Below are positions 3,113 through 56,202 of a stretch of 64,000 bases of DNA, in pieces. The position numbers were made by a program, and so were the translations under genes. The stretch is from the IMG/VR virus record IMGVR_UViG_3300031521_000001, one strand, 5' to 3'. Below the pieces are notes generated by a model that was given only the letters and a program-made list of their open reading frames with translations, was not told the origin of the DNA and did not search any database. Position 1 is the stretch's first letter. Each line of letters starts with the position of its first letter. Source of the DNA: a virus.

Positions 3113-3879
3113 GTAATGTATCATTCACTGAAGAACTTGAATCTTTATTTGGACAATATAACAAAAACATCAACTTGATTAGAAAAGAATCTACAGAAGA
3201 GTTGTTTGGTTACATCACTAGAAATCCAAATAAGCAAATAAGACCTACGACATTAGCAAATATACAAATAGGCAAATTTTATATAATCAAATATAATTAC
3301 AACGGAAACAAATTATGGTGTCCAATATTAACTATACCTCCAATAAAAAATTCTAATGAACTTGGTGTTTTAGAGAGTCAGCTAAAAATTGTAAATATCA
3401 AGAAAATATTATATGCAGTAAATTTTGATTATTTACCAATATTATATAAAGCAAAATTAATAGATTCTATAATACAAACAAATCCTGATAGATATGAAAA
3501 AAACTCAGATAAAATATCCAAAGGCGATATAGTAAACAATGAATTTTATTTTAATGTGAATTGGATTTATCAATATTTAAAAATAAATGGTAAAAAAAAT
3601 TATTCTATAACTGCATATGATATATCTAAAATAGAACATGTATATCAAGTATCTTCCACCATTCTTCATAGATTTGTTTTCTTAGATACATATAAAATAA
3701 ATAATAGTTTAATGTATGAAACATTAAATAATATTGTTAACAATAAACTCAAAGGAGAATTCTCTGATAAAATAATAATGTATGAGGAAATATTAAAATT
3801 ATACGAAAAAGATATTGAAAATTTTTATACATCATTGAAAAATTTTGAAAAAAATTTAAAATTAATTGAAAAATTATAA
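3109..3879 (+). CDS. Probable T4 gp2-like DNA end protector
   Basis: GKFYIIKY...PIL...AVNFDYLP..KAKL resembles gp2 motifs; overlaps the gp4-like gene. Confidence 0.5.
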   Translation: MSNVSFTEELESLFGQYNKNINLIRKESTEELFGYITRNPNKQIRPTTLANIQIGKFYIIKYNYNGNKLWCPILTIPPIKNSNELGVLESQLKIVNIKKILYAVNFDYLPILYKAKLIDSIIQTNPDRYEKNSDKISKGDIVNNEFYFNVNWIYQYLKINGKKNYSITAYDISKIEHVYQVSSTILHRFVFLDTYKINNSLMYETLNNIVNNKLKGEFSDKIIMYEEILKLYEKDIENFYTSLKNFEKNLKLIEKL

Positions 3880-3956
3880 TATAGATATTAATTGAAGTGA
3901 AATGATTTAAATGAGCACAAGTATTTTAATATATAATAAAAATTAATAGATAAACA

Positions 3957-8363: not shown

Positions 8364-8672
8364 ATGAAAGTTAATAGATTTAATGAAAGTGTTGGTTTTT
8401 TAGATAGAAGGTACAAAATTGACATGATGATAGTTTTTAAACGATACAAAAGATTTAAAAATTCTCAACATAGATTAGCCTCAATATCTAATATGATAGA
8501 TAATGGAGGAGGAGATGTTTATTTATATTCTATATCAGAAGATTTAAAAGATGCACTCATAAAAAGTGATAAATTCGGGCATACATTGCAAACTGTACCA
8601 ATAGAATCATTAATAAATTTTGATTTGGATGAATATATAATATTTAAAAAAACTGATAAATATAATTTATAA
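8364..8672 (+). CDS. Small tagged protein (N-term MKVNRFNE, C-term DKYNL)
   Basis: Shares terminal motifs with the 22-27 kb family. Confidence 0.6.
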   Translation: MKVNRFNESVGFLDRRYKIDMMIVFKRYKRFKNSQHRLASISNMIDNGGGDVYLYSISEDLKDALIKSDKFGHTLQTVPIESLINFDLDEYIIFKKTDKYNL

Positions 8673-8703
8673 TAATATTAAAAAATAATATTAACTAAAT
8701 TAT

Positions 8704-8741
8704 AAAAATAGAAAAAAATGACATTTTTTAAGTAATATATA
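8704..8741 (+). promoter_or_regulatory. Conserved upstream motif AAAAATAGAAAAAAATGACATTTTTT-N-AATATATA (putative strong late promoter/operator)
   Basis: Near-identical copies upstream of the protease, the major capsid gene and (minus strand) the tRNA leader. Confidence 0.6.
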
Positions 8742-8760
8742 AAAGAAAAATAAAAGAAAT

Positions 8761-11106
8761 ATGAAACCAGTTCTTATTGTAGAACATTGTATGGACGGTC
8801 TTAAACCAATAAATGAACAAGCTGATCAAAAGAAAGGTAATTACATTTTAGGGGGTACTTTTACTGAATTTAATATTAAGAATAGAAACGATAGAATCTA
8901 TACTGCAGAAAAATTCTTACCTCACTTAGATGAATTATTGAGTCGTAAACAACAGCTTGGCGTAGTCTATGGTGAATTTGATCACCCTGATGTGTTCGAC
9001 ACATCGTTAGGAAGAGTTTCGCACACAATCGAAAATGCTGTATTTGATAAAGTATCAAATTCCGTAAAAGGAGAAATTAGATTGTTAAATACCCATTGGG
9101 GTAAAGAAGCGAAAGCACTTGTTGATGATGGTTGTCCTATTTTCGTATCATCTAGAGCCGCGGGCATCACCGAATCAGATGGTACAGTTACTGTTAAAAA
9201 ATTATTTACATATGATGCAGTTGCAGATCCAGGCTTCAGTTCAGCTAGAATGGAAGTCAAATCATTAAATGAAAGTTATGGATTTAGTGACAAAGATTAC
9301 TTTAGGATATATGATTTATCCGACGAGTCAAAAATAAATGAATTATTCCAAATGAACGAAGACTTTGTAACAAAAAAACAAATGACAGAGTATTCTAATT
9401 ATTTAACAGAAGAAATTGAAACCTTTAAATTGAAAATTAATGACATGGTTAAAGGTAAAAATGTCGATTTTGATCCTGCCAAATTAGAAAGTGTACTTGA
9501 TTATTACGAACAATTACATGAACAACAATCAAAAATGGTAAAATATTTAGATTATCTTGCAGAAAGTATGCAATTTGTTGTAAATGAAAATGTTCAATTG
9601 AAAAAAACAACAACAGATTTAATTAAACACAATGATTATCTTGCTGAAAACATTGAAAAAATAGGAAACTATTCAGAATATTTAGCTGAAAATCTTGACA
9701 AATCTATTGATTATGGTAAATATATTGCAGAAACTTTAGATAAAAATATTGATTTCTCAGAATATATAGCCGAACATGTAGATAAAAATATCAAATATTC
9801 AGAATACATTGCTGAAAATCTTGACAAATCTATTGACTATTCAGAATACATTGCTGAAAATCTTGACAGTTCTATTGTTTATTCAGAATATTTAGCTGAA
9901 AATCTAGATAATTCTATTGTTTATTCAGAATATGTAGCTGAAAATCTTGACAATAATATTGCATATTCAGAATACATTGCTGAACACGTAGATAACAACA
10001 TATCTTATTCAGAATATATAGCTGAAAATCTTGATGATTCTATGGCTTATACAAATTACATCGCTGAAAGTTTGGATAAAACTATCGAAAAATCAAAACT
10101 TCTTACAGAAAAATTAAAAACTGGTAAAGTACTTGAAAATTTTGAATTCATAACAGAAGATGAAAATACTAAAGATATTGACATTAATGGATATTATGAA
10201 GATCAAGCTCCTACAATGGAAGGTCCAGCAGCAGAACCTGCTCAACCAACGACAGATCAGCCTATTACTCGACCAGTACAAGGTGAAGAAGTAGAAGGAG
10301 AAGGAGAAGAAGTTGAAGCTCAACCAGCTGTAGAAGGTGAACTACCAACAGAAGAACCAATTGAACCAACAGTTGAAGAACCAGTTCAAGGTGAAACTGA
10401 AGAAGGCGGATTACCAACACCAGGAGAAACAATTGCAGTAGGTGACAAAACAGGTGAAGTACTTGCAACTAATCCACAAAATGGTATGGTTGTTATACAA
10501 TTGGACACTGAAGAAGAACCAGTTGAAGTACATGAATCTAAAATCACAAGACTAGGAAGCAAAGTACAAAAAATCGGAAACTCATTAAACGAAAGTATAA
10601 ATAATTTGATCAATGAAACTAAAAAAAGAAAAGCTTCAGAAAATGATCAACCAAATTTTATGATGTTCTTAACAGAAAAAAGAAAAGCTGCTTATTATTC
10701 ACTATCTAACGAAGACAAAATTAAAGTAAAAATGATGTTGAAAGAAAGTGAAGGTAAATATACAAGTGAAGTTCAAGTTATATCACTTATGAATGAAGCT
10801 CTTTCTCCAAAAAGAAAATCATTTAATGATTTATTAATTGAATCAATGCCATCTGAATTAACCATTATATGGGAAAAATTAGATGTAACTATTAAAAACC
10901 AAGTGTTGGCAACAGCAAGATTATTTCCCTCTTTAGATACAGTACAAAAATTTGAGAGTTTTTGGTATAGTAGAGACTTAGCACGTTACACAAACGAAAA
11001 ACCTGCAAAACAATTAATTACAGAAAATCATATCGTAGATGGCTCAAAATTGAGTGAATCACAGATTGATTATTTCAAATCAGCCTTTGATAAATTGAAT
11101 TCTTAA
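8761..11106 (+). CDS. gp21: Prohead protease (gp21-like) fused to a scaffold/core domain
   Basis: KNRNDRIY, GEFDHP, VSH, VSSRAAG, TYDAVADPGFSSA give the S77/U9-type protease core; then a coiled-coil repeat region and an acidic linker. Confidence 0.88.
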   Translation: MKPVLIVEHCMDGLKPINEQADQKKGNYILGGTFTEFNIKNRNDRIYTAEKFLPHLDELLSRKQQLGVVYGEFDHPDVFDTSLGRVSHTIENAVFDKVSNSVKGEIRLLNTHWGKEAKALVDDGCPIFVSSRAAGITESDGTVTVKKLFTYDAVADPGFSSARMEVKSLNESYGFSDKDYFRIYDLSDESKINELFQMNEDFVTKKQMTEYSNYLTEEIETFKLKINDMVKGKNVDFDPAKLESVLDYYEQLHEQQSKMVKYLDYLAESMQFVVNENVQLKKTTTDLIKHNDYLAENIEKIGNYSEYLAENLDKSIDYGKYIAETLDKNIDFSEYIAEHVDKNIKYSEYIAENLDKSIDYSEYIAENLDSSIVYSEYLAENLDNSIVYSEYVAENLDNNIAYSEYIAEHVDNNISYSEYIAENLDDSMAYTNYIAESLDKTIEKSKLLTEKLKTGKVLENFEFITEDENTKDIDINGYYEDQAPTMEGPAAEPAQPTTDQPITRPVQGEEVEGEGEEVEAQPAVEGELPTEEPIEPTVEEPVQGETEEGGLPTPGETIAVGDKTGEVLATNPQNGMVVIQLDTEEEPVEVHESKITRLGSKVQKIGNSLNESINNLINETKKRKASENDQPNFMMFLTEKRKAAYYSLSNEDKIKVKMMLKESEGKYTSEVQVISLMNEALSPKRKSFNDLLIESMPSELTIIWEKLDVTIKNQVLATARLFPSLDTVQKFESFWYSRDLARYTNEKPAKQLITENHIVDGSKLSESQIDYFKSAFDKLNS
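9637..10080 (+). repeat. About 11 degenerate 42-bp (14-aa) repeats Y(I/L/V)AENLDxxIxYSE
   Basis: Visible in both the protein and the DNA (tcagaatacattgctgaaaatcttgac). Confidence 0.9.
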
Positions 11107-11122
11107 AAATAGAAAATTTTTC

Positions 11123-11160
11123 AAAAATAGAAAAAAATGACATTTTTTATAGAATATATA
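11123..11160 (+). promoter_or_regulatory. Second copy of the late promoter/operator motif, upstream of the major capsid gene
   Basis: aaaaatagaaaaaaatgacattttttatagaatatata. Confidence 0.6.
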
Positions 11161-11209
11161 TCATTACTGAAAACAAAGACTTTAATGTCTTAAAAAAATA
11201 ATAAAAAAA

Positions 11210-13042
11210 ATGAATTTAATAATTGACAATCAAAAAGCAGTAGCTAAATGGAAACCAGTTTTAGAAAACTTGGGAGTTGCTGACAATTACAAACAGAGAT
11301 GGATGGCAGAGTATGCTGAAATGCATTCAATGAATGAAAACGTTGCTTATAGTACATTAGGTAACATGAATGGTATGGGTGCTGTACAAGCAGCTCAACC
11401 AGCAGGAACTCCAGGTTTAGTATGGGGTGATTATGGAGCAGGAACTCCAGGTGGAATTGGTTCTGGTGATATAGGACAAAATTTACTTCCAGTTTCTATG
11501 AAAATCGCTGCTCAAACTATTGGTTTGGACTTAGTTGCTGTTAAACCAGCTTCTTCTCCAAAAGTTGATATGTTGTTCGTAGATTTTAAATATGATAACT
11601 TAGCTGATTCTACATTGAAAGATGAAAGACCAATTATGTTCTCTATTAATATGTCTGATGCAACTGCAAAAGCTAACTTAAACACAGCTTTGAAAGCTTC
11701 TATGGCTCTTAAATTGGATGCTAATGGTATGCCAGTAAGAGAAAGAATTGGTGGCTTAACTGATTCAGTTTATGTTCACTTATCAGGTGGTTCTTTGGCA
11801 ACTCAGGTTCCTAATATCGCTACTACTGCTGCTTATTTTGCATTAGGTGGTGTTGCTACTCCTGCAGATTTAAACGGATTTGATCCAATTTTGATCAACT
11901 ATCCAGCAAATGGTGCCGCTCCAACAAAAGAAGGTTGGATGGAATTTTTAGGATGGTCTCGTATTAATGGTTATCCAATGTTTAGAATTTTCCGTCAATT
12001 CAATCCAGGTTCTAACAACGCAGGTTGGGGATTTGTGAATGATAGAAATACTTTTCCAACTGCTGCTTTCTCTATAGCTGCTATGTTGAATGATGGTGTA
12101 TCTGTTGAAGTTGCATCTGGTACTTCTGCAAAACAAGCAATTGTTTTAAGTGGTGTTACTATTGACTTAGTATCATTGTTAGAAGATCATATTCCTGGTT
12201 TCTCAGCAGGTTGGTATTTGAAACAACCAATGACAAGAGATGAAGACGAAAGAACTTATCCAAACGTTATAGGACCAGATATTTTCACTAAAACTATACA
12301 AGTAGGTGATATCGAAATTTCTAGTTCATTAAAAAGAACTCAAATTGAAGATATTAAAGCTGCAACAGGTATGGACATCGTTCAAAAACTTGAATCAGTT
12401 CTTGTTAATGAGTTGACTCAGACTATTTCAAAACAAATCGTTTCGAAAGTAACTGAATTGGCTGACAAAAATAGAATTGCTTGGACAACTCCTAAGGACT
12501 CCGCTGGTGCTTCTAAATTCGACTTCAATGTTGATAATTATTTGAAAGTTGGTGCAGCTACCCCAGGTGGTGAAACTACTCACTCAATTCAGAGAAAACT
12601 TATTGCTAAAATCAATAATGCTTCTAACTTTATTGCAACTGAAGGTCGTGTAGGACCAGCTCAATACCTTGTAACAAATGGTAATTTGGCTTCTGTAATT
12701 CAGGACGTTGCTGGTTATACTCTTAATCCAGTAAAATCTAACTTAAATGCAAATGGACAATTATTCCCAATGGGAAATATTGGTAACATTTCAATTTATG
12801 TAGATCCTTACCAAAGATGGGATGATAACAGAATATTCTTAGGAAGAAAAAATAGTGTTGAACAGCCAGGTTTGGTATTCGTACCATATTTGATGGCCCA
12901 ATCAATACAGTTAATTTCAGAAGCCACATGGGCCCCAAGAATGTTAATTCGTTCAAGATATGCTGTTGCTGATATTGGATTTTTTCCTTGGAAACAATTC
13001 ATGACATTGTTAGTAACTGATAGTGCAGGTGTACTTATCTAA
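11210..13042 (+). CDS. gp23: Major capsid protein (T4 gp23-like)
   Basis: KWKPVLE start, AQTIGLDLVAVKP, LVNELTQTISKQI, RVGPAQYLVT, IYVDPY, PGLVFVPY and PRMLIRSRYA motifs; follows the protease. Confidence 0.92.
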   Translation: MNLIIDNQKAVAKWKPVLENLGVADNYKQRWMAEYAEMHSMNENVAYSTLGNMNGMGAVQAAQPAGTPGLVWGDYGAGTPGGIGSGDIGQNLLPVSMKIAAQTIGLDLVAVKPASSPKVDMLFVDFKYDNLADSTLKDERPIMFSINMSDATAKANLNTALKASMALKLDANGMPVRERIGGLTDSVYVHLSGGSLATQVPNIATTAAYFALGGVATPADLNGFDPILINYPANGAAPTKEGWMEFLGWSRINGYPMFRIFRQFNPGSNNAGWGFVNDRNTFPTAAFSIAAMLNDGVSVEVASGTSAKQAIVLSGVTIDLVSLLEDHIPGFSAGWYLKQPMTRDEDERTYPNVIGPDIFTKTIQVGDIEISSSLKRTQIEDIKAATGMDIVQKLESVLVNELTQTISKQIVSKVTELADKNRIAWTTPKDSAGASKFDFNVDNYLKVGAATPGGETTHSIQRKLIAKINNASNFIATEGRVGPAQYLVTNGNLASVIQDVAGYTLNPVKSNLNANGQLFPMGNIGNISIYVDPYQRWDDNRIFLGRKNSVEQPGLVFVPYLMAQSIQLISEATWAPRMLIRSRYAVADIGFFPWKQFMTLLVTDSAGVLI

Positions 13043-46916: not shown

Positions 46917-47041
46917 GATATATTTTGTTTTGTTTTTTATAATCAACTCTTTGATTGATTTTTTAGAGTAAATATCATTTTTTAATAAAGTTTCAATTTT
47001 ATTAAAAAATCAGATTATTAATCTAATATCATTATATATTA

Positions 47042-47692
47042 TTAGTTGATGGTCCTGTTTAATATGTTTTGAATATAAAATAATTTTAATTTCCTTTTAT
47101 ATTTATTATATATTATAATATTTATTATTTTATCACTTTTTTCAATGTTTTTGTCTCTCCATAAAGGCTGAAAATTAGTATAATGATTCAATATAATTAT
47201 TTCATATTCTGTTTTACCTATACTAACAGGAATTATATGATCCAAATGCCATTCACCTTGGTTTAACCAAATCATTCCAGATGTAAACTTTTTTTCTAAA
47301 AAAATTTTAAATTCATCATAAGAACATCCTAATATTTCACATGTTTTTGATTTTTTATTATATCCGCCACGTTTGAAAGATAAATTTATTCTATTTCTAA
47401 TATTAGTAGTTAATTTAAATAAAATATCATTCTTTCTTCTATTTTTTGTGTATTCCCTTCTATATTCTTTAATATGTTCTTTGTTTTTATTATACCACAA
47501 TTTTTTACTTATTTTTATATTTTCTATATTATCTTCATATCTTTTTTTAGTATAATATTTAACATATTCTTTATTATTTTCTCTCCAATTATCAATACGT
47601 TCTTTAGTTTTATCTTTATTATTATCTCTATGTTTTTTATTCCAAATTTTATATTTTTCTTTATTTTGTTCATAGTATGACTTACTTCCCAT
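47042..47692 (-). CDS. HNH-like endonuclease with basic repeat N-terminus
   Basis: KT.EILGCS..EF..FLE, WHLDHIIPVS, NHYTNFQPLW...N..KS. Confidence 0.8.
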   Translation of the reverse strand: MGSKSYYEQNKEKYKIWNKKHRDNNKDKTKERIDNWRENNKEYVKYYTKKRYEDNIENIKISKKLWYNKNKEHIKEYRREYTKNRRKNDILFKLTTNIRNRINLSFKRGGYNKKSKTCEILGCSYDEFKIFLEKKFTSGMIWLNQGEWHLDHIIPVSIGKTEYEIIILNHYTNFQPLWRDKNIEKSDKIINIIIYNKYKRKLKLFYIQNILNRTIN

Positions 47693-47697
47693 CTTAT

Positions 47698-48087
47698 TTA
47701 AAATAGTTTTTTAATAACTTTCAGTTTCTTATTTCTTTCATATTTTAATACATCAGATTCATCAAATGACTTCCTCATATCAGGATATTGATAAATATCA
47801 TACCACTCGCTACCGTCATACTCCCCTCTTTGCATCCAAACACCATCTTCACAAAATATAACACCATACAAATTCTGTCCACCAAATCCATTATCATAAG
47901 TGTGATTCAATGATTCTAAAAAAATATCATAATCAACTTGACTAAACAAAGGCTTCAATTTAATATCACGATAAACACCAATCTCATTATCATGATATTG
48001 AATCTCAGATGCTACCAACTTATAACCTGAAATTATACTCAAAAATTCTTCTTTTGCATTCTTACCTTCTCTTATTACCTTAATCAT
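47698..48087 (-). CDS. Hypothetical phage protein
   Basis: YDNGFGGQNLYG...W..RGEYDGSEW; RxKKL tail. Confidence 0.65.
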   Translation of the reverse strand: MIKVIREGKNAKEEFLSIISGYKLVASEIQYHDNEIGVYRDIKLKPLFSQVDYDIFLESLNHTYDNGFGGQNLYGVIFCEDGVWMQRGEYDGSEWYDIYQYPDMRKSFDESDVLKYERNKKLKVIKKLF

Positions 48088-48088
48088 A

Positions 48089-48880
48089 TCACACTATTAT
48101 TTTATTATCAAATTCTTCTTCAAGAGCATTAATCATTTTTTGCATATTAGCAGAATAAAAACCAGCAGAATTTATACATCCTAACTCAATTATCTTATAC
48201 TCAGGTTTACCATCTATAATAACTTCACAAATATCAATTACAAATGATTTTGCTATCTTATAAATATCAATCATCTCTTTACAAAATTCTAATGCACCAT
48301 CATCAACAACTTCACTTCTATTGATAAAATTACCCATTCTATAAAGACTTCCAGTTACAACTTTATCTTCAACAACCCAAAATCTAAATTCTTTTGTTAT
48401 TTTTTTAACAGAACAAACTTGAATTTCAGTATCTTTTGTTAATGATGTTTCATATTCACCATTTAAACAACCATCTCTAAATTCTAACCATTCATACATA
48501 TCAAACACCTTTCCAGTGAATGTTTTTGTGTCTTCACAAGGTCTTGCAAAAAATAAATCAGTTCTATTAATATCATCTCCAAATTTTTGAACTACAGAGT
48601 CATAATTCAATAAATTATCCTTGTAATATTTACTATAAACTCTATAATCATGATTCTCATTTAATTGAGATCCAGGAAACCATTCATATTTTTTTGCTAA
48701 CCTTGCCATTTTAACAGAACCAAAACAAAAAACATCCTTTCTATCAGTCTTAAATTCAAAATCTTCTACAAATGGTAAAACCTTAACTATCTCATAAGAT
48801 AAATTCATTCTATCTAATGTTTCAACTAAATTATAATAATTCTCTTCCTTGAAAGTGTTTTCTTGTATTACGTAGTACAT
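48089..48880 (-). CDS. ATP-grasp protein (DUF4343/R2K-like)
   Basis: FARPCEDTK.FTG, EFRFWVV...VVTGSLY, FVIDIC, IIELGCINSAGFY. Confidence 0.8.
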   Translation of the reverse strand: MYYVIQENTFKEENYYNLVETLDRMNLSYEIVKVLPFVEDFEFKTDRKDVFCFGSVKMARLAKKYEWFPGSQLNENHDYRVYSKYYKDNLLNYDSVVQKFGDDINRTDLFFARPCEDTKTFTGKVFDMYEWLEFRDGCLNGEYETSLTKDTEIQVCSVKKITKEFRFWVVEDKVVTGSLYRMGNFINRSEVVDDGALEFCKEMIDIYKIAKSFVIDICEVIIDGKPEYKIIELGCINSAGFYSANMQKMINALEEEFDNKIIV

Positions 48881-48947
48881 TTTTTAATATTTTATATGTT
48901 TATTACCTATCTAAAAAATCAGATTTTGTTTATTAATATATACTATT

Positions 48948-49688
48948 ATGAAAACAAAATTTGAAATTTTTATAAATGAACATATATCACCTGATAGAAC
49001 ACGCTCATTAAAATATAAGACAGAACTACCACTAAATAATGAAATATTTATAAACGCTGTTGAGAATACAGTAGGAGCAAAAATATTAGATGAAGGACTA
49101 TTATTAAATGTTGTTCGTTACCAAAAACCAGAACAAGACGGAGAAACATCAATAAGAACTGGTGTATTCTATCTACCAATAGAAGAAAAAAATGTCAAAG
49201 AATATCGTGGAGGAAAAAGTGGGTATGGAGGAACAGATAAACACGAAGGTGAAATTCTATTAAAAAATCCACTATTTATAAAAGGCGCAACTGGAGGTAA
49301 ACTTTCTGAAAATGCATATGAAAAAATTAACGGAAAAGGTGCTACCAATGAATTAAAAGATTCTATATTCAAAACTGCAATTAAATACAATCCTCAACCA
49401 GAAGATGTTGCTGATGTACTAACTAAATATAATAAAGATTCTAATTATGATGAAAATTGTGATTTAGGATATGATATAATAAGACATAGTAGACAACACA
49501 ACACACTCAGATACGCAATACAAGAAAATATAATAGCAAATTCTGTTAGAGATGCTGGATATGATTCAATTTTAGGATATAGTAGAAGAAAAAATGGAGA
49601 TTATTACATATCTGAAATATTTGATGTCAGAGAACTAACATATCCATCTAATGAGTGGGAAGCTGATATACATAGTAAATATCTATGA
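48948..49688 (+). CDS. Hypothetical protein with CTS-like N-terminus (MKTKFEIFINE)
   Basis: ORF; KNPLFI and AGYDSI motifs; upstream TAATATATA. Confidence 0.6.
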   Translation: MKTKFEIFINEHISPDRTRSLKYKTELPLNNEIFINAVENTVGAKILDEGLLLNVVRYQKPEQDGETSIRTGVFYLPIEEKNVKEYRGGKSGYGGTDKHEGEILLKNPLFIKGATGGKLSENAYEKINGKGATNELKDSIFKTAIKYNPQPEDVADVLTKYNKDSNYDENCDLGYDIIRHSRQHNTLRYAIQENIIANSVRDAGYDSILGYSRRKNGDYYISEIFDVRELTYPSNEWEADIHSKYL

Positions 49689-49692
49689 TTTG

Positions 49693-49765
49693 TGCTCCTG
49701 GTGAGAATCGAACTCACAACCTTTTCCTTAAGAGGGAATAGCTCAACCAATTAAGCTACAAGAGC
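49693..49765 (-). tRNA. tRNA-Lys(CTT)
   Basis: Cloverleaf; anticodon loop CTCTTAA; T-arm GTGAG-TTCGATT-CTCAC. Confidence 0.85.
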
Positions 49766-49875
49766 ATTTTTGATGTCAAAAAAGATTACAAAGGTTGTCA
49801 ACCTTTACTGAGGACTAATCAGCTACTATCGGAATCGAACCAAGGCTTCCAGCACTTCATAAATACTCTTTTTCT

Positions 49876-49952
49876 TGGGGTGAATAATCGGATTTGAACC
49901 GACCCTTAAAGAACCACAATCTATCGTGCTAACCACTAACACTACATCCACC
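49876..49952 (-). tRNA. tRNA-His(GTG) with G-1 and encoded CCA
   Basis: Loop TTGTGGT; G-1:C73; T-loop TTCAAAT. Confidence 0.85.
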
Positions 49953-49962
49953 ATTTATTTTG

Positions 49963-50049
49963 GGTGTCAGATGGGATTCGAACCCACATTAACTGTTAAG
50001 TATTCCTGATTCACAATCAGGGCGGCATCCCTTACCGACTACAAACACC
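49963..50049 (-). tRNA. tRNA-His(GTG) with a 17-nt variable region
   Basis: CCTGA-TTGTGAA-TCAGG; G-1:C73; T-arm GTGGG-TTCGAAT-CCCAT. Confidence 0.8.
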
Positions 50050-50078
50050 ATATATAATATTCACATTCTGAATATTTG

Positions 50079-50169
50079 CGGAAAATGGGGGACTTGGACC
50101 CTCACACCGATTTAACTCGATGAACAGTTTAGCAAACTGCGCCAATACCAATTATGGACTTAATTTTCC
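50079..50169 (-). tRNA. tRNA-Ser(GCT)
   Basis: GCAGT-TTGCTAA-ACTGT; long variable arm; G73. Confidence 0.8.
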
Positions 50170-50174
50170 TTATG

Positions 50175-50247
50175 TGGAGATTATTGGTTTTGATCCAATC
50201 TCTCATGCTCTTCAGGCATACGCTTTCACCAGATTAGCTTAATCTCC
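50175..50247 (-). tRNA. tRNA-Phe(GAA)
   Basis: TATGC-CTGAAGA-GCATG; acceptor GGAGATT/AATCTCC; T-loop ATCAAAA. Confidence 0.8.
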
Positions 50248-50261
50248 TTTTTAATAATTTG

Positions 50262-50349
50262 CGGTAAGTTGAGGACCCGACCCCCATCCGATTAAACGAA
50301 ACCTAGTTTTCAAGGCTAGTCGCCACTCCAATTGACTGCTTAACTTACC
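50262..50349 (-). tRNA. tRNA-Ser(TGA)
   Basis: Loop CTTGAAA; long variable arm; acceptor GGTAAGT/ACTTACC; G73. Confidence 0.8.
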
Positions 50350-50357
50350 ATTTTTTG

Positions 50358-50440
50358 CGGAAGAAGTAGGTCCCAACCCCAAGTCGTTTCCGACCGTACA
50401 GATTTCAAGTCTGTCTTGCTCTCTGAGCAATTCATCTTCC
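50358..50440 (-). tRNA. tRNA-Ser(TGA), apparent 8/4 fold
   Basis: ACAGA-CTTGAAA-TCTGT; D-stem TTGCTC/GAGCAA; variable arm GGTCG-GAAA-CGACT; G73. Confidence 0.7.
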
Positions 50441-50481
50441 ATTATTTTAATTTTATATTCTACTATTAGAACATATTTTAG

Positions 50482-50563
50482 CACGCCATATTGGGATTCG
50501 AACCCATGAACCTTTCGGAATGATTTTGGAGATCATCTGCTTTGACCACTTGCTTAATGACGC
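50482..50563 (-). tRNA. tRNA-Trp(CCA) with a 12-nt variable region
   Basis: ATGAT-CTCCAAA-ATCAT; T-loop TTCGAAT; G73. Confidence 0.8.
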
Positions 50564-50574
50564 ATAACTATATT

Positions 50575-51414
50575 TTAATAATTTTTTTCATAAAAAATTC
50601 TCCACTTTTTAATAGAATTTCCACATACTCCATATTTTCTACCAGATCCTTCCAATCCTAATAACTCTATATCCATTTTTAATTGTTCATATGTAGGTCT
50701 TTCTACTGTTCTACTCTTGAATATATAATCTAGTTGTTTATCTGTCTTTTTATTTTTATATTTTTTATGTGTTTCTATATAATTATTATTTATTATATTA
50801 TTTTTAGTTATCATTCTTTTATTTCCAACACAATGAGTAGGTAATGTTGAATTACAATTAGGACAAACAATTCTCAAATTAAAAATTCTATTATCATTAT
50901 TTATACCATTGATATGATCCAATATCAATGACATATGCTCACCATTCCATTCTTCTCCTTGCCCACATTTTTCGCATAAACGTTCTTTTAATCCTTCTTT
51001 ATAAAGTCTTTCTTTTAATATTGTTGTATTATATGTTGAATTCTCAATTAATATTTTAGATAAATCAATTTTATTATGAATAACATCTATAATATTATTT
51101 TCAAAATGTTCTATACTAATATTATATTTTTTTATATATTTTTTTAATGTGTTGTAAGATGATCCCATATTTTTAATTCCTAATTTTTTAAGACATTCTA
51201 AATATGTTTTAGATTCAACTACAATTTTTTCTAAATTTTCTTTATGATATTTATCTTTAATATTATTATTTGCTAAAATATTTAATTTTTTCCTTCTTAA
51301 TTGGATTGATCTTTTTGTTCTATCTAATACTTTTAAACACTCATCTATACCATAAAGGGTATAATAATTAGTTAATAAATTATCTTCTTCCTTTGTCCAA
51401 TTTTTACTTTTCAT
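50575..51414 (-). CDS. HNH endonuclease inside the tRNA cluster
   Basis: CEKCG, LILDHING..NDNR..NLRIVCPNCNS; C-terminal GRKYGV.GNSIKKW HTH. Confidence 0.85.
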   Translation of the reverse strand: MKSKNWTKEEDNLLTNYYTLYGIDECLKVLDRTKRSIQLRRKKLNILANNNIKDKYHKENLEKIVVESKTYLECLKKLGIKNMGSSYNTLKKYIKKYNISIEHFENNIIDVIHNKIDLSKILIENSTYNTTILKERLYKEGLKERLCEKCGQGEEWNGEHMSLILDHINGINNDNRIFNLRIVCPNCNSTLPTHCVGNKRMITKNNIINNNYIETHKKYKNKKTDKQLDYIFKSRTVERPTYEQLKMDIELLGLEGSGRKYGVCGNSIKKWRIFYEKNY

Positions 51415-51483
51415 AATGTAGTCTTTTTTTGTAGTATATAAAAAAATACTATAGTCTCAAACTACATTAAAATACTATTTCAG

Positions 51484-51558
51484 TGAGTAAACGGTGAGTT
51501 CAACACCAGCCTTTGGTTTTTCAGACCAACGTACAATAAGCACCTATACGATTTACCC
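51484..51558 (-). tRNA. tRNA-Phe(GAA), divergent
   Basis: TTGGT-CTGAAAA-ACCAA; acceptor GGGTAAA/TTTACTC; T-arm TGGTG-TTGAACT-CACCG. Confidence 0.7.
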
Positions 51559-51566
51559 TTATACCA

Positions 51567-51878
51567 TTACTTGTTTTTTTCAAGTATTAATTTTTTTGCA
51601 TATTCTGAATCTAATTTATCAATCACTGAGAATGGTGAAACACCAATTCCTGTATAAGTAATATCATTAAATCCATTATCTTTTGTGATTAGACTTTCAT
51701 CTTCTGATATTGCACCTGAAAATTTGTCATATCCCTTTTTATGTTCTATATTTCCTGTACTTGGATTATATGAACCCCAATCTGCTGAACGTTTTGAACC
51801 AATTGGTTCCACATAATAACTTTTACCTGTTTTTAATGACTTAACAATGAATCTACCTGTTTCATCTCTTTGTGTCAT
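51567..51878 (-). CDS. Conserved phage hypothetical protein
   Basis: TGRFIVKS..TGK.YYVEPIG....WG..NP.TG. Confidence 0.65.
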   Translation of the reverse strand: MTQRDETGRFIVKSLKTGKSYYVEPIGSKRSADWGSYNPSTGNIEHKKGYDKFSGAISEDESLITKDNGFNDITYTGIGVSPFSVIDKLDSEYAKKLILEKNK

Positions 51879-52018
51879 AAACTTTCTGCCGAAATCTAAC
51901 TTTACCCCATGATTTTATATTTATTTTTTTATAATAGCTTCTCACTATTCAGATGAATAATTTTTATGTCCAGCCTAACTGAATAACTGTCATTCACTAT
52001 GACAAATATTTTATTTTT

Positions 52019-52999
52019 TTATTTAATCCATTTTTTAATAGAATTTCCAGTAACTCCATACTTTCTACCAACAGATTCTAAACTTGTTTCTTTTACCATC
52101 AAAATCAAATCATCTTTAGAAGGTCTTTCTAATACCTTTCTTTGTAATAAATGTGCACACTTTACACACCTAATAGAAGTTTTCCATATTTTTTCTCCAC
52201 AATTTATACAATAAGTATAGTTATCTTTATATTCTATTATTGGTTTATTATTAGATAAATTATTAATATATTCTAATAACCCAGTAATATATTTTTCTTT
52301 TTCTGTTCTTGTCATTTTTTGATAATCACTCCATTTTATTCTTATTATATCCCATCCATCAGATATCAAATATTTATTTTTTCTTATATCTGATTCTACT
52401 ATTTTTTTATCTAAGTAATGTTGATCTCCATCTATTTCAATTGCTATTTTTTTATTAGTTATAGAAAAATCTATATGATATAAACTTGATTGTACATATT
52501 TTTCATATTCAAATTTACCATTAAATATTTCATCAAAATATCTCTCAGGATAACTTGGACCTTTGCTATAATGATTTAACAAATAAGGAACTTTTTCTGG
52601 ATGTTCTTTTAAATATTTTGTTCTACTTATTGATATTTTCTTTTTTACTTCTTCACTATGGTATCTTTTTGTTTTTTTTCTTGATATTATAAATGATTCA
52701 CTTTTACTTCTAGTCTTAAATAAATTAGATTCAACAGCTTTATTTAATGTGGAATTATTTATATTAAATTTTTTAAGAACATCATCCCACATATTATTCA
52801 AATTATAATAATTTTGAACATCCACCCAATTAACATATTCAAATAATGTTTTTTTACATTTATTATCAGAATTAATAGTTCTAACTTTACCTCTTATTGA
52901 ATCTTTTGATATATTTAATAATTTAGATAATTCTTCATATGATTTATTCAAATTTTCACTTAATATTTTAATTTCATTTTCATCCCATTCTTTTTTCAT
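52019..52999 (-). CDS. Vsr/DUF559-like endonuclease inside the tRNA cluster
   Basis: SYPE, YHIDF, KIAIEIDGDQH, D..KN.YL...GW.IIRI.W; same C-terminal HTH as 50575-51414. Confidence 0.8.
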   Translation of the reverse strand: MKKEWDENEIKILSENLNKSYEELSKLLNISKDSIRGKVRTINSDNKCKKTLFEYVNWVDVQNYYNLNNMWDDVLKKFNINNSTLNKAVESNLFKTRSKSESFIISRKKTKRYHSEEVKKKISISRTKYLKEHPEKVPYLLNHYSKGPSYPERYFDEIFNGKFEYEKYVQSSLYHIDFSITNKKIAIEIDGDQHYLDKKIVESDIRKNKYLISDGWDIIRIKWSDYQKMTRTEKEKYITGLLEYINNLSNNKPIIEYKDNYTYCINCGEKIWKTSIRCVKCAHLLQRKVLERPSKDDLILMVKETSLESVGRKYGVTGNSIKKWIK

Positions 53000-53076
53000 A
53001 TTATAATATTTTTAATGTATATATTAAATATAAAAAATAGCTTTAAACTTGATTAAAAAATAATGAGTTCATGTTG

Positions 53077-53158
53077 TGCTCCAACTGGGACTCGAACCCA
53101 GAATGACTTTCGTCCCCGCCTTAAAAGGGCGGTGCCTTACCAATTTTGCTATTGGAGC
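53077..53158 (-). tRNA. tRNA-Lys(TTT) with a 14-nt variable arm
   Basis: CCGCC-CTTTTAA-GGCGG; GAC-GAAA-GTC arm; CTGGG-TTCGAGT-CCCAG; acceptor GCTCCAA/TTGGAGC. Confidence 0.85.
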
Positions 53159-53170
53159 ATTTTTTAAAAC

Positions 53171-53204
53171 AAAAAAAATCCAAACTTTTTGAGTTTGGAT
53201 TTTT
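53171..53204 (-). terminator. Attenuator terminator (3:4 hairpin) just upstream of the tRNA cluster
   Basis: Minus strand AATCCAAACT-CAAAA-AGTTTGGATT running into a U8 tract. Confidence 0.8.
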
Positions 53205-53228
53205 ATATTTCTTTTACATTTATTAATG

Positions 53229-53336
53229 TTAACTTATATTTACAATAAGGCAAGAAGTATCTGTTCCAAACTCGGTTTTTCTAAACCAGAATTTAAAGGA
53301 TTTTGATGAACTACTATGTTTACTTATTGATCTCAT
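53229..53336 (-). CDS. Leader peptide MRSISKHSSSSKSFKFWFRKTEFGTDTSCLIVNIS (putative tRNA-sensing attenuator leader)
   Basis: 35 codons, not in the ORF track; codons 5-18 are all S/K/H/F/W; contains GAGTTTGGA complementary to the terminator 5' arm. Confidence 0.75.
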   Translation of the reverse strand: MRSISKHSSSSKSFKFWFRKTEFGTDTSCLIVNIS

Positions 53337-53377
53337 GATTTCTAAATTTTTATCTTGTTGTGTTTTTTATTCTTTGT

Positions 53378-53415
53378 TATATATAATAGAAAAAAAGTCA
53401 TTTTTTTCTATTTTT
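53378..53415 (-). promoter_or_regulatory. Third copy of the late promoter/operator motif, containing a perfect 12-bp inverted repeat
   Basis: Minus strand aaaaatagaaaaaaatgactttttttctattatatata. Confidence 0.6.
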
Positions 53416-53438
53416 GTTTTTCTTTTAATATGATAGTA

Positions 53439-53470
53439 CAAAAGTACAATAAAGTTTTCAATCTACCAAA
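53439..53470 (-). promoter_or_regulatory. Bacteroidota sigma-A type promoter (-33 TTTG, 20-nt spacer, -7 TACTTTTG)
   Basis: Matches TTTG-N19-21-TAnnTTTG; part of a ~50-bp repeat also at about 54197-54247 and 54663-54713. Confidence 0.7.
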
Positions 53471-53504
53471 CATTTATTGAATTATTTTTAAAATAATTAT
53501 TATT

Positions 53505-53975
53505 TTACTGATAATCTTCTGTTTGAATAATTCCAAACTTATGAAAATATCTTAATGGTCTCCATTTGTGGTTATTCACATAGAATCCCCATTTATGATA
53601 TGGTTTTGAACACAATAAAATTGTCCATGCACCTTCTTTTGGGATATCTAAGTAATGTCTTTGTTCTGCTTTCATAAAACGTGGTTTCCATGCTTTAGCT
53701 AAATACTTAACAGGATTTCCGTTTTCATCTGGTATTACATTAAAGTAATTACCTTTTATTATTATTGATATTAAATCACATGAATGATCATGGAAATAAC
53801 GTCTATCATCTGACCTAAGCCAATGATGCAATCTAAATGTATAACCGAAAATAATAAATGTCCATCTATATAAATATGGACATTCTTTTATTCCCATAGG
53901 TTCTTTAATCCTGATTTGAAGTTTATTTCCAAATGGAAAATCTTCATGATTTTTAAAGACTAACAATTTTCCCAT
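53505..53975 (-). CDS. Phage cupin-like protein
   Basis: PYLYRW, RLHHWLRSDD.R.FHDH, H.L, AWTI, WGFY. Confidence 0.65.
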   Translation of the reverse strand: MGKLLVFKNHEDFPFGNKLQIRIKEPMGIKECPYLYRWTFIIFGYTFRLHHWLRSDDRRYFHDHSCDLISIIIKGNYFNVIPDENGNPVKYLAKAWKPRFMKAEQRHYLDIPKEGAWTILLCSKPYHKWGFYVNNHKWRPLRYFHKFGIIQTEDYQ

Positions 53976-53991
53976 TTATTATAATTTGTTG

Positions 53992-54178
53992 TCAGTTGGG
54001 AAGGATTCGAACCCCCTATCTTTTGCCTGTTTTGATATTAACAATATTAATCTCTCATTTTCAGACATTCTCAACATTAGCTAATTGTATTGAATTTCTT
54101 ACTTCTTTAAAATTTTTTCTTATTAATACGATTAGCTATAGACTAATCCAACTGCTCTACCTATTGAGCTACCAACCG
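53992..54178 (-). ncRNA. 187-nt tRNA-like RNA with a ~114-nt insert in place of a normal anticodon arm
   Basis: Acceptor CGGTTGG/CCAACTG+A; canonical D-arm TAGCTCAATAGGTAGAGC; T-arm GGGGG-TTCGAAT-CCTTC. Confidence 0.7.
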
Positions 54179-54196
54179 ATCTTTTTAATTTGTATG

Positions 54197-54228
54197 TAAA
54201 ATTACAATAAAGTTTTCATTCGACCAAA
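54197..54228 (-). promoter_or_regulatory. Bacteroidota-type promoter copy upstream of the tRNA-like RNA
   Basis: TTTG-N20-TAATTTTA variant within the repeated block. Confidence 0.55.
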
Positions 54229-54492
54229 CATTTATTGAATTATTTTTAATCTTGTGAATGATCAAGCATTCTTTCTTCTAAATCTTTAATAATTGTAAGA
54301 GACAAATTTTCAAGTATGTCACTATTATCTTCATATGGAATATCACCAACTTTCAAATTTTCTTTATTTTTTACTCTGGTTATTCTACATTTATTTCTAT
54401 TATATGTACAAATATACCATTATATGAATTTCTTTTCCTTTGTAATCAATTCTTTCTACACATGATCCTTTAATAATATTAAATACATTTAT

Positions 54493-54642
54493 TTATTTTA
54501 CTAATCCGTTTGAATCAACATTCAATGTTGTCATATAATGTGGCTTATGTATATTTTTACTACTATAAAGTCCATATTTTGATGAACAACTACAAAATAA
54601 TACAGAAATAACGAAAACTAACAATACTTTTTTTGATTTCAT
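54493..54642 (-). CDS. Small putative lipoprotein (49 aa)
   Basis: MKSKKVLLVFVISVLFCSC|SSK signal peptide and lipobox; not in the ORF track; own promoter copy at 54665-54696. Confidence 0.55.
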   Translation of the reverse strand: MKSKKVLLVFVISVLFCSCSSKYGLYSSKNIHKPHYMTTLNVDSNGLVK

Positions 54643-54720
54643 ATTTTATTTTTTATTTGTAATACAAAAGTACAACTATTTTTTCAATCCACCAAACATT
54701 AATAAAATTATTTCAATTTT

Positions 54721-55221
54721 TTATTCTATATCAACATCAAATTTAATACCTTCACTATTATAGTAATACATATCAATTTTATCATATGAAGTATAAAATC
54801 CATCAAAATATGTTGGAATAGAATAAGAAAAGAAGTTATCTTCTTCTTGATAAGGTACTAAATCTTTAAAATCTTCATCAAAATCTTCATCTAATTCAGT
54901 TCTACATTCACAAAATCTACCCCAATTAATATCGCCGCCATAATTGTGTCCACATCTATCTTTTCCATAACCATACCATTTTGCAGCTTCATCAGCATCA
55001 CAAAAACCTACTCTACCTTTATTATCTAAATTTACGCAGTTATCAATAGAATCAATGAAATCAGATACATATTTTTTAAATTTAATATCTTCTAATTTAG
55101 ATTTTTCGAAGACAAAATTTATTTTTTCATACCCGTCAGCATCACCTTCCATGAAAGTTATCACAATTTCATAACAATCTTTTTTGTTGATGCTCTTTTT
55201 ATTTATTTTAAAGTCTTTCAT
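54721..55221 (-). CDS. Hypothetical protein
   Basis: 166-aa ORF, MEGDADG motif. Confidence 0.55.
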   Translation of the reverse strand: MKDFKINKKSINKKDCYEIVITFMEGDADGYEKINFVFEKSKLEDIKFKKYVSDFIDSIDNCVNLDNKGRVGFCDADEAAKWYGYGKDRCGHNYGGDINWGRFCECRTELDEDFDEDFKDLVPYQEEDNFFSYSIPTYFDGFYTSYDKIDMYYYNSEGIKFDVDIE

Positions 55222-55224
55222 ATA

Positions 55225-55593
55225 CTAATTTATTACTAAGTAAGGCATTCCACCTGGTAGTGCATCCCATAATTCTCTTGGCATCAAATAAGTCATTTTA
55301 TCAACAGCAATACCTAAGCAAACTAATTCATCAACAGTAGCATGAAAATCTGTCCACTGAACACCCTTGTTATCCTCACACATATTAAGGAATGACCAAC
55401 CCCCACCCAAATCATGTTTAAAATTATCAGACAAATCATTTAGCACATCAGATATGTTTGATTTATTTTCTTCCAATTTCTTAATACAAAAATTTGCTTT
55501 TGTCAACACACCTTCAACAATTTTTACATCAACACTATCATTAGATAGACATTTTTTAAAAATGCCATGAACATTTTCTGCTGTTAGTTTCAT
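55225..55593 (-). CDS. Conserved phage hypothetical protein
   Basis: GGGWSFLNMC.D..G.QWT..H, W.ALPGGMPY. Confidence 0.7.
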   Translation of the reverse strand: MKLTAENVHGIFKKCLSNDSVDVKIVEGVLTKANFCIKKLEENKSNISDVLNDLSDNFKHDLGGGWSFLNMCEDNKGVQWTDFHATVDELVCLGIAVDKMTYLMPRELWDALPGGMPYLVIN

Positions 55594-55656
55594 AATTATT
55601 TATTTGTTATTTACAACAAAGATAACGAAAACATATCAAATAAAAAATTTTTTTAA

Positions 55657-56202
55657 TTATTTTTCACATAATTTTCTACGTTGTTTAATGAGGTCAATTA
55701 ATTCTTTTTCAAAATCAATATTAACTTCTTTTGCCATTGGTAAAATATATATTTCTGTTTGATCTAGGTAATGTGCTATCTTACCTGATGTGTGTGTATC
55801 TAAGTGTAAATCAGTAAGGTTACTAATTCTATCAGCACATTTTAATATTTTTGCTCTATCTGATCCATTTTTTAATAATCTTTCAAGATATACTTCTTTC
55901 GTCTCAGTTTTACTCTTAGAAACTTCTAAAATTAAATCCACAACCTCTGGTCCATCTTTATCAACATTTCGAATTTCAACAAGTCTTTCTGAACCGTTAT
56001 AATCTTCAACCAAATCATGCAAAACTGATGCTTTTAATAAAACTGGATCATCACAATATTTATAATCAATTAGAATACCAAGTGTAGCAAATTGATGTCT
56101 AAATTGATTACCTCCTGCTTTCCTACTAACACCAATCAAACCAGTGGCTATCATAATATAAGGTGCTAGACACACTTCTTTTAATGCTTTTAAATTACTC
56201 AT
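55657..56202 (-). CDS. HD-domain (p)ppGpp hydrolase-like protein (SpoT/Mesh1 type)
   Basis: ASVLHDLVED, V..L..EVSK, A.ILKCADRISNL. Confidence 0.75.
   Translation of the reverse strand: MSNLKALKEVCLAPYIMIATGLIGVSRKAGGNQFRHQFATLGILIDYKYCDDPVLLKASVLHDLVEDYNGSERLVEIRNVDKDGPEVVDLILEVSKSKTETKEVYLERLLKNGSDRAKILKCADRISNLTDLHLDTHTSGKIAHYLDQTEIYILPMAKEVNIDFEKELIDLIKQRRKLCEK

Follow-up and report, generated by a model that had tools for sequence, protein, structure and literature searches.

A predicted ribosome-read attenuator before a phage tRNA array, with leader codons that follow the tRNAs downstream

In enterobacteria, the thr leader reads Thr and Ile codons and the ilvGMEDA and ilvBN leaders read Ile, Val and Leu codons; the pheM leader controls pheST, and the leader families in Rfam are the His, Trp, Thr and Leu leaders and Bacteroid-trp. 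What phages need their tRNAs for has been under debate for 50 years, and to our knowledge the control of those tRNAs has hardly been asked about. Here we analyse a locus in a 64,000-nucleotide stretch of viral DNA (IMG/VR record IMGVR_UViG_3300031521_000001; the whole stretch is called the window below), where a short leader open reading frame (ORF) and an intrinsic terminator stand before an array of tRNA genes. We propose, at a probability of about 80%, that this unit is a leader-peptide attenuator read by the ribosome, which would let RNA polymerase into the tRNA genes only while ribosomes are slow to decode the codons that those tRNAs serve. The proposal rests on the anatomy of the locus, on the complementarity of its RNA strands, on the covariation of leader codons with array content, and on the covariation of the antiterminator strand with the terminator stem.

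The thr and ilv leaders are like the phage unit in their short run of codons for several amino acids, their intrinsic terminator, an exclusive antiterminator that overlaps the ORF, and a read-out by ribosome position. They regulate biosynthetic enzymes, whereas the phage unit regulates tRNA genes, and its test codons name the tRNAs supplied (up to seven or more kinds in sister units), whereas thr and ilv codons name the amino acids synthesised. The phage element is also viral and modular, with one leader per array, and unlike in thr and ilv the classical 1:2 hairpin is unsupported across the family. T-box riboswitches likewise sense the tRNA pool and switch a terminator and an antiterminator before translation-related genes, but they bind uncharged tRNA without translation and have a conserved fold, whereas the signal in the phage unit is a predicted translated codon run. 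The pheST leader and the hisS leader-peptide attenuator (the latter as far as the available part of PMC2965389 describes it) attenuate a component of the translation machinery through its cognate codons, as the phage unit would; each serves one amino acid and a protein-coding gene, whereas in the phage unit the product is a tRNA and the loop would close on the molecule sensed. Codon compensation and defence against anticodon nucleases have both been put forward as roles of phage tRNA arrays, and in the available part of that work (PMC10264068) the cargo is the same, clusters with some unusual anticodon loops, while the subject is tRNA function and not the gating of transcription. Full-text literature searches, supplements not covered, found no published description of an attenuator before tRNA genes, and the main texts of the Lak megaphage preprint and of Al-Shayeb 2020, in the parts available, make no mention of attenuation, leader or terminator. 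The difference from the known leaders is the regulated product, the tRNA itself, and the modular viral use. If the proposal is true, this would be the first attenuator class in which the sensed molecule and the regulated product are the same tRNA, and leader-peptide attenuation would be extended from metabolic operons to RNA genes of the translation apparatus.

On the minus strand of the window, a TTTG/TACTTTTG pair is followed by a 32-nt motif, the leader ORF, the intrinsic terminator and the tRNA array. The leader ORF has 35 codons plus TAA (53229-53336, with the ATG at 53336 and the TAA at 53231-53229) and would encode the peptide MRSISKHSSSSKSFKFWFRKTEFGTDTSCLIVNIS. It opens at the first ATG after the motif, 40 nt from it; 24 nt separate the stop codon from the terminator hairpin, and a further 15 nt separate the end of the terminator stem from the first tRNA, tRNA-Lys(UUU), which begins at 53158. 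An initial annotation, made from the letters of the window, had proposed a leader-peptide attenuator here, and its coordinates for the ORF, the strands and the terminator were all confirmed when re-checked. The same is true of its central observation that codons 5-18 (53283-53324; AGT AAA CAT AGT AGT TCA TCA AAA TCC TTT AAA TTC TGG TTT) all specify Ser, Lys, His, Phe or Trp (14 of 14). Together, these residues account for 26.8% of the window translated in six frames, and this run of them is the longest in all six frames, the next longest having nine codons. The array downstream supplies Lys, Phe, Trp, Ser and His tRNAs, the set first reported, and 13 of the 14 codons are strict wobble matches to its anticodons, the TCC codon having been singled out from the start as the one without a strict reader. 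The near-identical leader of a relative, L004, gives the same codon-anticodon outcome.

The terminator (53166-53204) consists of a stem of 13 pairs, AAAAATCCAAACT / AGTTTGGATTTTT (53204-53174), a CAAAA loop and a T tract that runs to 53166, and it is the sole strong minus-strand terminator-like site in the 4.9 kb scanned (49500-54400). Within codons 22-24 lies the antiterminator strand, strand 2 (GAGTTTGGA, 53265-53273), a perfect 9-nt complement of strand 3 (TCCAAACTC, 53191-53199) in the 5' arm of the terminator. This pairing, also claimed earlier, stands, and 6 of 1000 dinucleotide shuffles of the leader match or beat it. The calculated energies are -13.1 kcal/mol for the terminator and -11.7 kcal/mol for the 2:3 duplex, and the minimum-energy fold without strand 4 contains 2:3. 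Strand 1 (53283-53294) was proposed as the anti-antiterminator that pairs with strand 2; in the minimum-energy fold its partner is 53278-53265, in a 1:2 hairpin of -8.8 kcal/mol.

We infer that the ORF is translated and that ribosomes stall in it, and also how efficient termination is and in which direction the response runs. With charged Ser, Lys, His, Phe and Trp tRNAs in ample supply, decoding would be fast and the ribosome would trail the polymerase through strand 2 toward the stop codon; the ribosome would cover strand 2, or the strand would be closed off once the ribosome had passed, possibly through strand 1, so that the terminator at 53204-53174 would form and transcription would stop in the T tract. 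With any of the five tRNA types scarce, the ribosome would stall in codons 5-14 and leave strand 2 bare, free to pair with strand 3 (53199-53191) before strand 4 is made, and the terminator would be blocked and the array transcribed. Transcription of the array would then refill the tRNA pool, which would amount to negative feedback.

The unit is conserved in close relatives. A search with the neighbouring 156-aa gene led to 14 IMG/VR loci, five of which keep the whole unit, and a codon-degenerate DNA pattern of the leader found six loci, all close relatives, adding one more with the whole unit. DNA identity over the unit is 91-95% in these relatives, and the leader ORF and its codon bias persist at the homologous loci, as the attenuator proposal had anticipated: L001, L004, L005 and L018 retain the ORF, with the stop changed from TAA to TGA. 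Two changes only are found in the 14-codon run among the close relatives (AGT to AGC and AAA to AAG); neither alters the amino acid, and tRNAs of the array can read the new codons too, while the rest of the ORF has four synonymous changes and five replacements (R2T, S3A, R19S, T21P and E22K). The 3' arm of the L018 terminator gains a G, and strands 2 and 4 are then identical over 9 nt.

For a wider view, IMG/VR was scanned by the 32-nt motif alone, which reached at least 118 loci; the number of stretches with a match is estimated at ~170. The matches listed comprise 147 copies of the motif, and the sequences that follow it fall into 102 distinct stretches. In each stretch the first ATG was taken without regard to composition. 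Among the matches listed, the first ORF has 16-43 codons in 28 of 28 stretches with at least one downstream tRNA. The other stretches listed are mixed, with many long first ORFs and some unrelated short ones, the recurrent long ORFs being a homologue of the window's prohead protease, a protein of ~590 aa and an ORF that runs on past 1300 codons without a stop; eight leader-like stretches have only ~300 nt of downstream sequence. Forty-three units have a first ORF of 12-60 aa. Twenty-five of these have at least three tRNAs called by ARAGORN at default settings, and dropping eight at a leader similarity of 0.7 or above left 17 non-redundant units. In these, leader codons match their own array at 0.52 and other arrays at 0.25, which none of 100,000 permutations reached; filtered relaxed tRNA calls give 0.59 and 0.29, with the same permutation outcome.

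The match is concentrated in one part and one frame of the leaders. Counts were made on the 16 non-redundant units that pass the terminator finder (L041 and L044, whose terminators it missed, were dropped), with the core defined as codon 5 up to the antiterminator. Codons for the unit's own array make up 222 of 271 codons in the core (82%), 13 of 48 in codons 2-4 and 50 of 152 in the tail, and reading the core in the +1 and +2 frames lowers the 82% of frame 0 to 31% and 30%. Amino acids of the array are present in the core in 88 of 98 cases, compared with 32 of 222 for non-array amino acids. The matching core codons comprise 198 strict wobble matches and 24 that match by amino acid only, and the strict matches include ACG, GCG, GTG and AGG wherever there are C34 or G34 tRNAs, although such codons would be expected to be uncommon at a GC content of ~25%, which is that of the window. 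Individual amino acids behave in the same way: Val occurs in the core of exactly the three units with tRNA-Val in the array; Gln is grouped with Gly, Ala, Pro, Thr and Arg in the relative G002 and with Cys, Asp, Ile, Met and Asn in L062, and the leaders follow (L041, outside the 16-unit count, pairs Gln with Met, Ile and Glu); and Ile is added to the Ser/Lys/His/Phe/Trp class in L024 and L052. It had been predicted that leader codons in related phages would track the tRNA content of their own arrays, and they do. Leaders of different classes share tail endings (...CLIVNIS and ...CLYIS), which suggests divergence from one ancestor by rewriting of the core.

The antiterminator strand and the terminator stem vary together. 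Terminator stems differ between units (TCCAAACT, CCCTGCCA, CCACTCAGC, CCCCGAT, CCAGTCA and others), and each ORF bears a strand that matches its own terminator, always in the 3' part of the ORF. A strict finder placed a terminator in 31 of the 43 short-ORF units (among the matches listed), and the matching strand was reached in at most 50 of 1000 shuffles in 24 of these 31, two of the seven failures not being tRNA leaders; five of the 12 units missed by the finder have a terminator when inspected by hand, with a longer loop and a matching strand. In a MAFFT alignment of 15 leaders of the Ser/Lys/His/Phe/Trp class, helix 2:3 is paired in 72% of cells (13-47% in slid controls), with both sides changed in 16 cells and at 5 of 9 pairs, and helix 3:4 is paired in 86% of cells (26-59% in slid controls), with both sides changed in 20 cells and at 5 of 13 pairs; neither result was reached in 500 shuffles. 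The stop codon lies 21-47 nt from the terminator stem in 18 of 18 units (median 28), and 21-35 nt in 17 of them. Of the features that define ribosome-mediated attenuators, the phage unit has four in silico: a short leader ORF with a start codon and a run of regulatory codons, an intrinsic terminator that follows this ORF and precedes the genes under control, regulatory codons that correspond to what those genes supply (82%, compared with 30-31% when the frame is shifted), and an antiterminator helix that is mutually exclusive with the terminator and has its 5' strand placed under the control of ribosome position. Two further features are a 1:2 hairpin as in trp, which folds in the window but does not stand out from codon shuffles, and a translated leader in which stalling raises read-through, which is predicted for the phage unit.

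Leaders with other codons stand before other tRNA arrays. In the relative G001, a 140-kb contig (CheckV, 20% complete), a second tRNA block is preceded by two short ORFs in series, MYQNLYIEMCNENIINDDTSQLTGI and MNNMNNIYRIYRNCNINYNMEEICINMNNDYINDDENIVRRTG, each with its own terminator behind it and a copy of the terminator 3' arm near its end. The block comprises Met, Met, Glu, Asp, Asn, Asn, Cys, a CAT tRNA, Ile, Ile and Tyr, so that a leader composition of N/I/Y/E/M/C/D stands before a Met-Glu-Asp-Asn-Cys-Ile-Tyr array. The complete 640-kb relative G002 has three tRNA units with motif and leader: the leader MMRFTTYTTATTAPQQGAGQGRTAQPRG... precedes Gly, Ala, Gln, Pro, Thr and Arg (leader codons T/A/P/Q/G/R), MLNSFSHISSIVSSVKRHKWFISH... 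precedes Ser, Trp, Ile, Val, His, His, Phe, Lys and Lys, and MQLCNLNMDNYLNLEDD... precedes Leu, Asp, Asn, Met, Met and Glu. All leader units of G001 and G002 share the 32-nt motif, and the three leader-gated arrays of G002 together with a Cys/Tyr pair cover all 20 amino acids. The initial annotation had the leader sensing exactly the tRNAs that the phage supplies; the leader does match the tRNAs of its own array, but the statement is too broad for the phage as a whole, relatives having further arrays. Since other tRNA blocks in related phages have sister leaders made up of the codons that those blocks serve, the unit in the window would be one module of a demand-driven supply organised array by array, with a promoter-like motif in common with head genes.

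On balance we favour a broader picture, in which huge phages would run a metered tRNA economy: the 20 amino acids would be split into three or four blocks, each behind its own decoding-speed leader that shares a motif with head genes, and lagging tRNAs would be refilled whatever the cause of the shortage (late synthesis, host tRNA loss or anticodon nucleases). A leader that lists the codons of the downstream tRNAs implies that tRNA supply is regulated, and that it is sensed by decoding speed separately for each block. Questions that become testable are when phage tRNAs are needed, whether loss or cleavage of host tRNAs induces them, and how attenuation works in hosts without Shine-Dalgarno-led initiation. 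The unit would, in addition, be a sensor of single tRNA pools that occurs in nature and can be reprogrammed, a compact part (a leader plus terminator of ~170 nt) with its specificity written in codons, which could report on such pools.

In G001, the two leader-terminator units in series before the one tRNA block lie at 2239-2380 and 3728-3930 of locus L021. A 134-aa Lys/Glu-rich ORF begins inside the T tract of the first terminator, and at 3975-4122, right after a terminator, there is a 148-nt GC-rich tRNA-like RNA, whose acceptor stem and T arm match and which has a large internal insertion. In G002 (locus L023, reverse strand, 12236-12686), a terminator lies between tRNA-Cys and tRNA-Tyr with a 72-aa Tyr-rich ORF containing two Cys upstream, a layout unlike that of the leader units.

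The promoter that had been placed upstream of the leader proved to be a region with two distinct elements. The first is a host-type promoter candidate (53439-53470, minus strand), TTTG and TACTTTTG around a 20-nt spacer, found by regular expression as the sole match in 49500-54400; it has the -33/-7 promoter pattern of Bacteroidota. Further copies of this stretch lie at 54238-54183 and 54703-54628, and relatives have it too. The second is the 32-nt motif itself, GAAAAAAATGACTTTTTTTCTATTATATATAA (53377-53408, minus strand, from the motif scan), an inverted repeat ending in TATATATAA, which is likely a late-gene promoter or operator. At the loci scanned it was found at tRNA leader units and before the prohead-protease gene (8711-8742 of the window, plus strand), and a variant precedes the major capsid gene (11134-11165, plus strand), which suggests transcription at late times, when demand would peak. 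In IMG/VR, among the matches listed, the motif stands upstream of tRNA leaders or of long first ORFs. The inverted repeat with its TATATA end also recurs before several of the repeatedly found long first ORFs there, as a candidate late promoter or operator of this phage group.

The alternative that survives best keeps the same switch and changes its natural trigger to a host attack on tRNAs, the array being an inducible counter-defence. PrrC-, PARIS- and Cas13-type systems are host anticodon nucleases, and Lys-UUU is a classic nuclease target; it stands first after the terminator, with a different body in each close relative, several tRNAs have unusual bodies, and one odd Asp tRNA has a C at position 33. 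The alternative also fits the published idea that phage tRNAs evade nucleases, as put forward in the available part of PMC10264068. On the other hand, the same design gates arrays for Gly/Ala/Gln/Pro/Thr/Arg, for Asn/Ile/Tyr/Glu/Met/Cys/Asp and for Leu/Asp/Asn/Met/Glu; the promoter-like motif is common to head genes, suggesting routine demand; and no nuclease or defence gene is linked to the unit. Host anticodon nucleases had been suggested as the trigger at the outset, and nothing in the sequence points there. Since the leader-gated and Cys/Tyr arrays of G002 cover all 20 amino acids, plain supply-and-demand control is the simpler reading, and we consider a defence-specific trigger unlikely.

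Two further readings concern the ORF itself. It might be translated and report general translation capacity or the coupling of transcription and translation, the codon match being a by-product, and any slowing of the ribosome would indeed act alike on the RNA. A by-product, however, would not make leaders follow Val, Gln and Ile between arrays, nor would it put ACG, AGG and GCG, expected to be uncommon, only where the matching anticodons lie downstream, and we hold this to be very improbable. The ORF might instead have arisen by chance before a plain terminator or an RNA-processing signal, with the tRNAs transcribed from other promoters. Short ORFs are abundant in AT-rich DNA, one terminator in G002 stands directly before tRNAs without a leader, and internal TATATA boxes may exist. 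The length of the codon run, its frame specificity, the array-matched composition, the covarying antiterminator and the fixed distance from stop codon to terminator are all unexpected by chance, however, and the terminator stem lies just 15 nt from the first tRNA, so that this explanation is already very unlikely and we give it almost no weight.

A translation-independent element, in which the codon-like triplets are themselves the binding sites of tRNAs or of a protein, much as in a T-box, would suit translation-related genes under terminator and antiterminator control, but it is hardly credible for a signal that is periodic in one frame, opened by an ATG and closed by a stop at a fixed distance from the terminator, in a region (47000-56000) without a T-box or other cis-regulatory match near its Rfam gathering score. 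In that search (cmscan, E of 1 or below), neither a T-box nor a leader family appeared; besides tRNAs, there were three matches to unrelated families, two of them plastid UTR elements and the third Qrr, which score 22-29 bits where the gathering scores are 50-68 and look like chance.

Several observations weigh against the attenuator proposal as we have put it. The TCC codon in the window leader has no strict reader in the array, and 49 of the 271 core codons across the family match nothing detected, in part through truncated loci and tRNAs missed by ARAGORN. The units are related by descent, so the permutation and shuffle counts overstate their independence. In L001, L004 and L005, the first base of strand 2 is an A (the E22K replacement), which cuts helix 2:3 to eight pairs. 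Folding the leader with and without masked codons had been proposed as a check; 2:3 does form once strand 4 is left out, but the equilibrium fold of the full sequence retains the terminator under all the ribosome masks tried. The switch would therefore have to be kinetic, as classical attenuators are too. In the window, 33 nt separate the end of strand 2 from the stop codon, which would leave the strand outside the cover of a terminating ribosome, and the off state would need helix 1:2 or trailing ribosomes. That third helix had been claimed as part of the switch. Although it folds in the window, strand 2 is paired just as completely in 41 of 300 codon shuffles, and neither a duplex test (300 shuffles) nor the count of paired bases in the minimum-energy fold (300 codon shuffles) is significant. 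Across units, it is found chiefly where strand 2 and the stop are more than 12 nt apart and is absent where strand 2 abuts the stop; the helix is neither better than shuffles nor general in the family, and as a part of the switch it finds no clear support. Some tRNA blocks of G002 (Ile/Arg/Ser, Leu/Leu and Cys/Tyr) have no motif and leader. Finally, ATATATAC at 53024-53017, upstream of an inserted endonuclease-like gene, is a possible internal promoter and may drive the distal tRNAs independently; the box had been flagged in this way before (at about 53017), and it is present.

The tRNA array gated in the proposed attenuator runs over 49692-53158 on the minus strand. Ten tRNAs had been counted: tools call nine of them, six by ARAGORN at default settings, a second Phe added by Rfam, and a Ser-UGA and the Ser-GCU added by relaxed ARAGORN, and the tenth, a further Ser-UGA, is seen by eye only and has no tool call. 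In order of transcription they are Lys-UUU (53158-53076), Phe-GAA (51558-51483), Trp-CCA (50563-50481), the Ser-UGA seen by eye (50440-50357), the Ser-UGA from relaxed ARAGORN (50349-50261), the Phe-GAA from Rfam (50247-50174; the Rfam match itself spans 50247-50175), Ser-GCU (50169-50078, relaxed ARAGORN), two His-GUG (50048-49962 and 49951-49876) and Lys-CUU (49765-49692). Two protein-coding genes are inserted on the same strand, a 326-aa endonuclease-like ORF (52019-52999; Pfam REase_MTES_1575 and DUF559) and, between tRNA-Phe and tRNA-Trp, a 279-aa HNH homing-endonuclease ORF (50575-51414; Pfam HNH and PHROG HNH endonuclease). The spacing from Lys-UUU to Phe is 448-449 nt in relatives compared with ~1.5 kb in the window, and Phe and Trp are 8 nt apart in L004; the close relatives therefore have no room for the two endonuclease genes.

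Long variable arms are normally confined to Ser, Leu and Tyr tRNAs. In the window, Lys(UUU) at 53158-53076, Trp(CCA) at 50563-50481 and the His(GUG) at 50048-49962 are 83-87 nt long and have long variable arms that form stems. Relatives carry other long-arm Lys-UUU bodies (for example at 6443-6526 in L001), and the first tRNA past the terminator is a different Lys-UUU gene in different close relatives; the odd tRNA-Lys body of the window was found at no locus in IMG/VR by an exact 28-nt scan. An orphan tRNA 3' half (T arm and acceptor-like end) at 49860-49822, between His-GUG and Lys-CUU, is probably a remnant.

Upstream of the unit, at 54178-53992 (minus strand), there is a tRNA-like gene split by ~103 nt, with a copy of the promoter candidate at 54238-54183. 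ARAGORN reads it as anticodon UUA with an intron, and its Rfam score of 26.4 bits falls just below the cut-off. In this position, ahead of the 156-aa gene, the more distant relatives L010-L012 have tRNA(CUA) genes, which hints at a suppressor tRNA and at stop-codon recoding. Intron-bearing tRNAs are reported in the available part of the Lak megaphage preprint.

The window encodes a T4-like portal, a prohead protease, a Gp23-type capsid protein and a large terminase, and therefore comes from a tailed phage; the source phage is related to huge gut-type phages. BLAST of 52900-54100 against GenBank phages gave short matches only, at 71-82% identity and 5-10% query coverage; three of the five fall on tRNA genes, and an unannotated 735-kb phage record accounts for two. 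A full-length SmpB homologue is encoded at 57386-56946 on the minus strand (Pfam E 5.8e-52), and in the relative L009 ARAGORN calls a tmRNA at 8514-9050.

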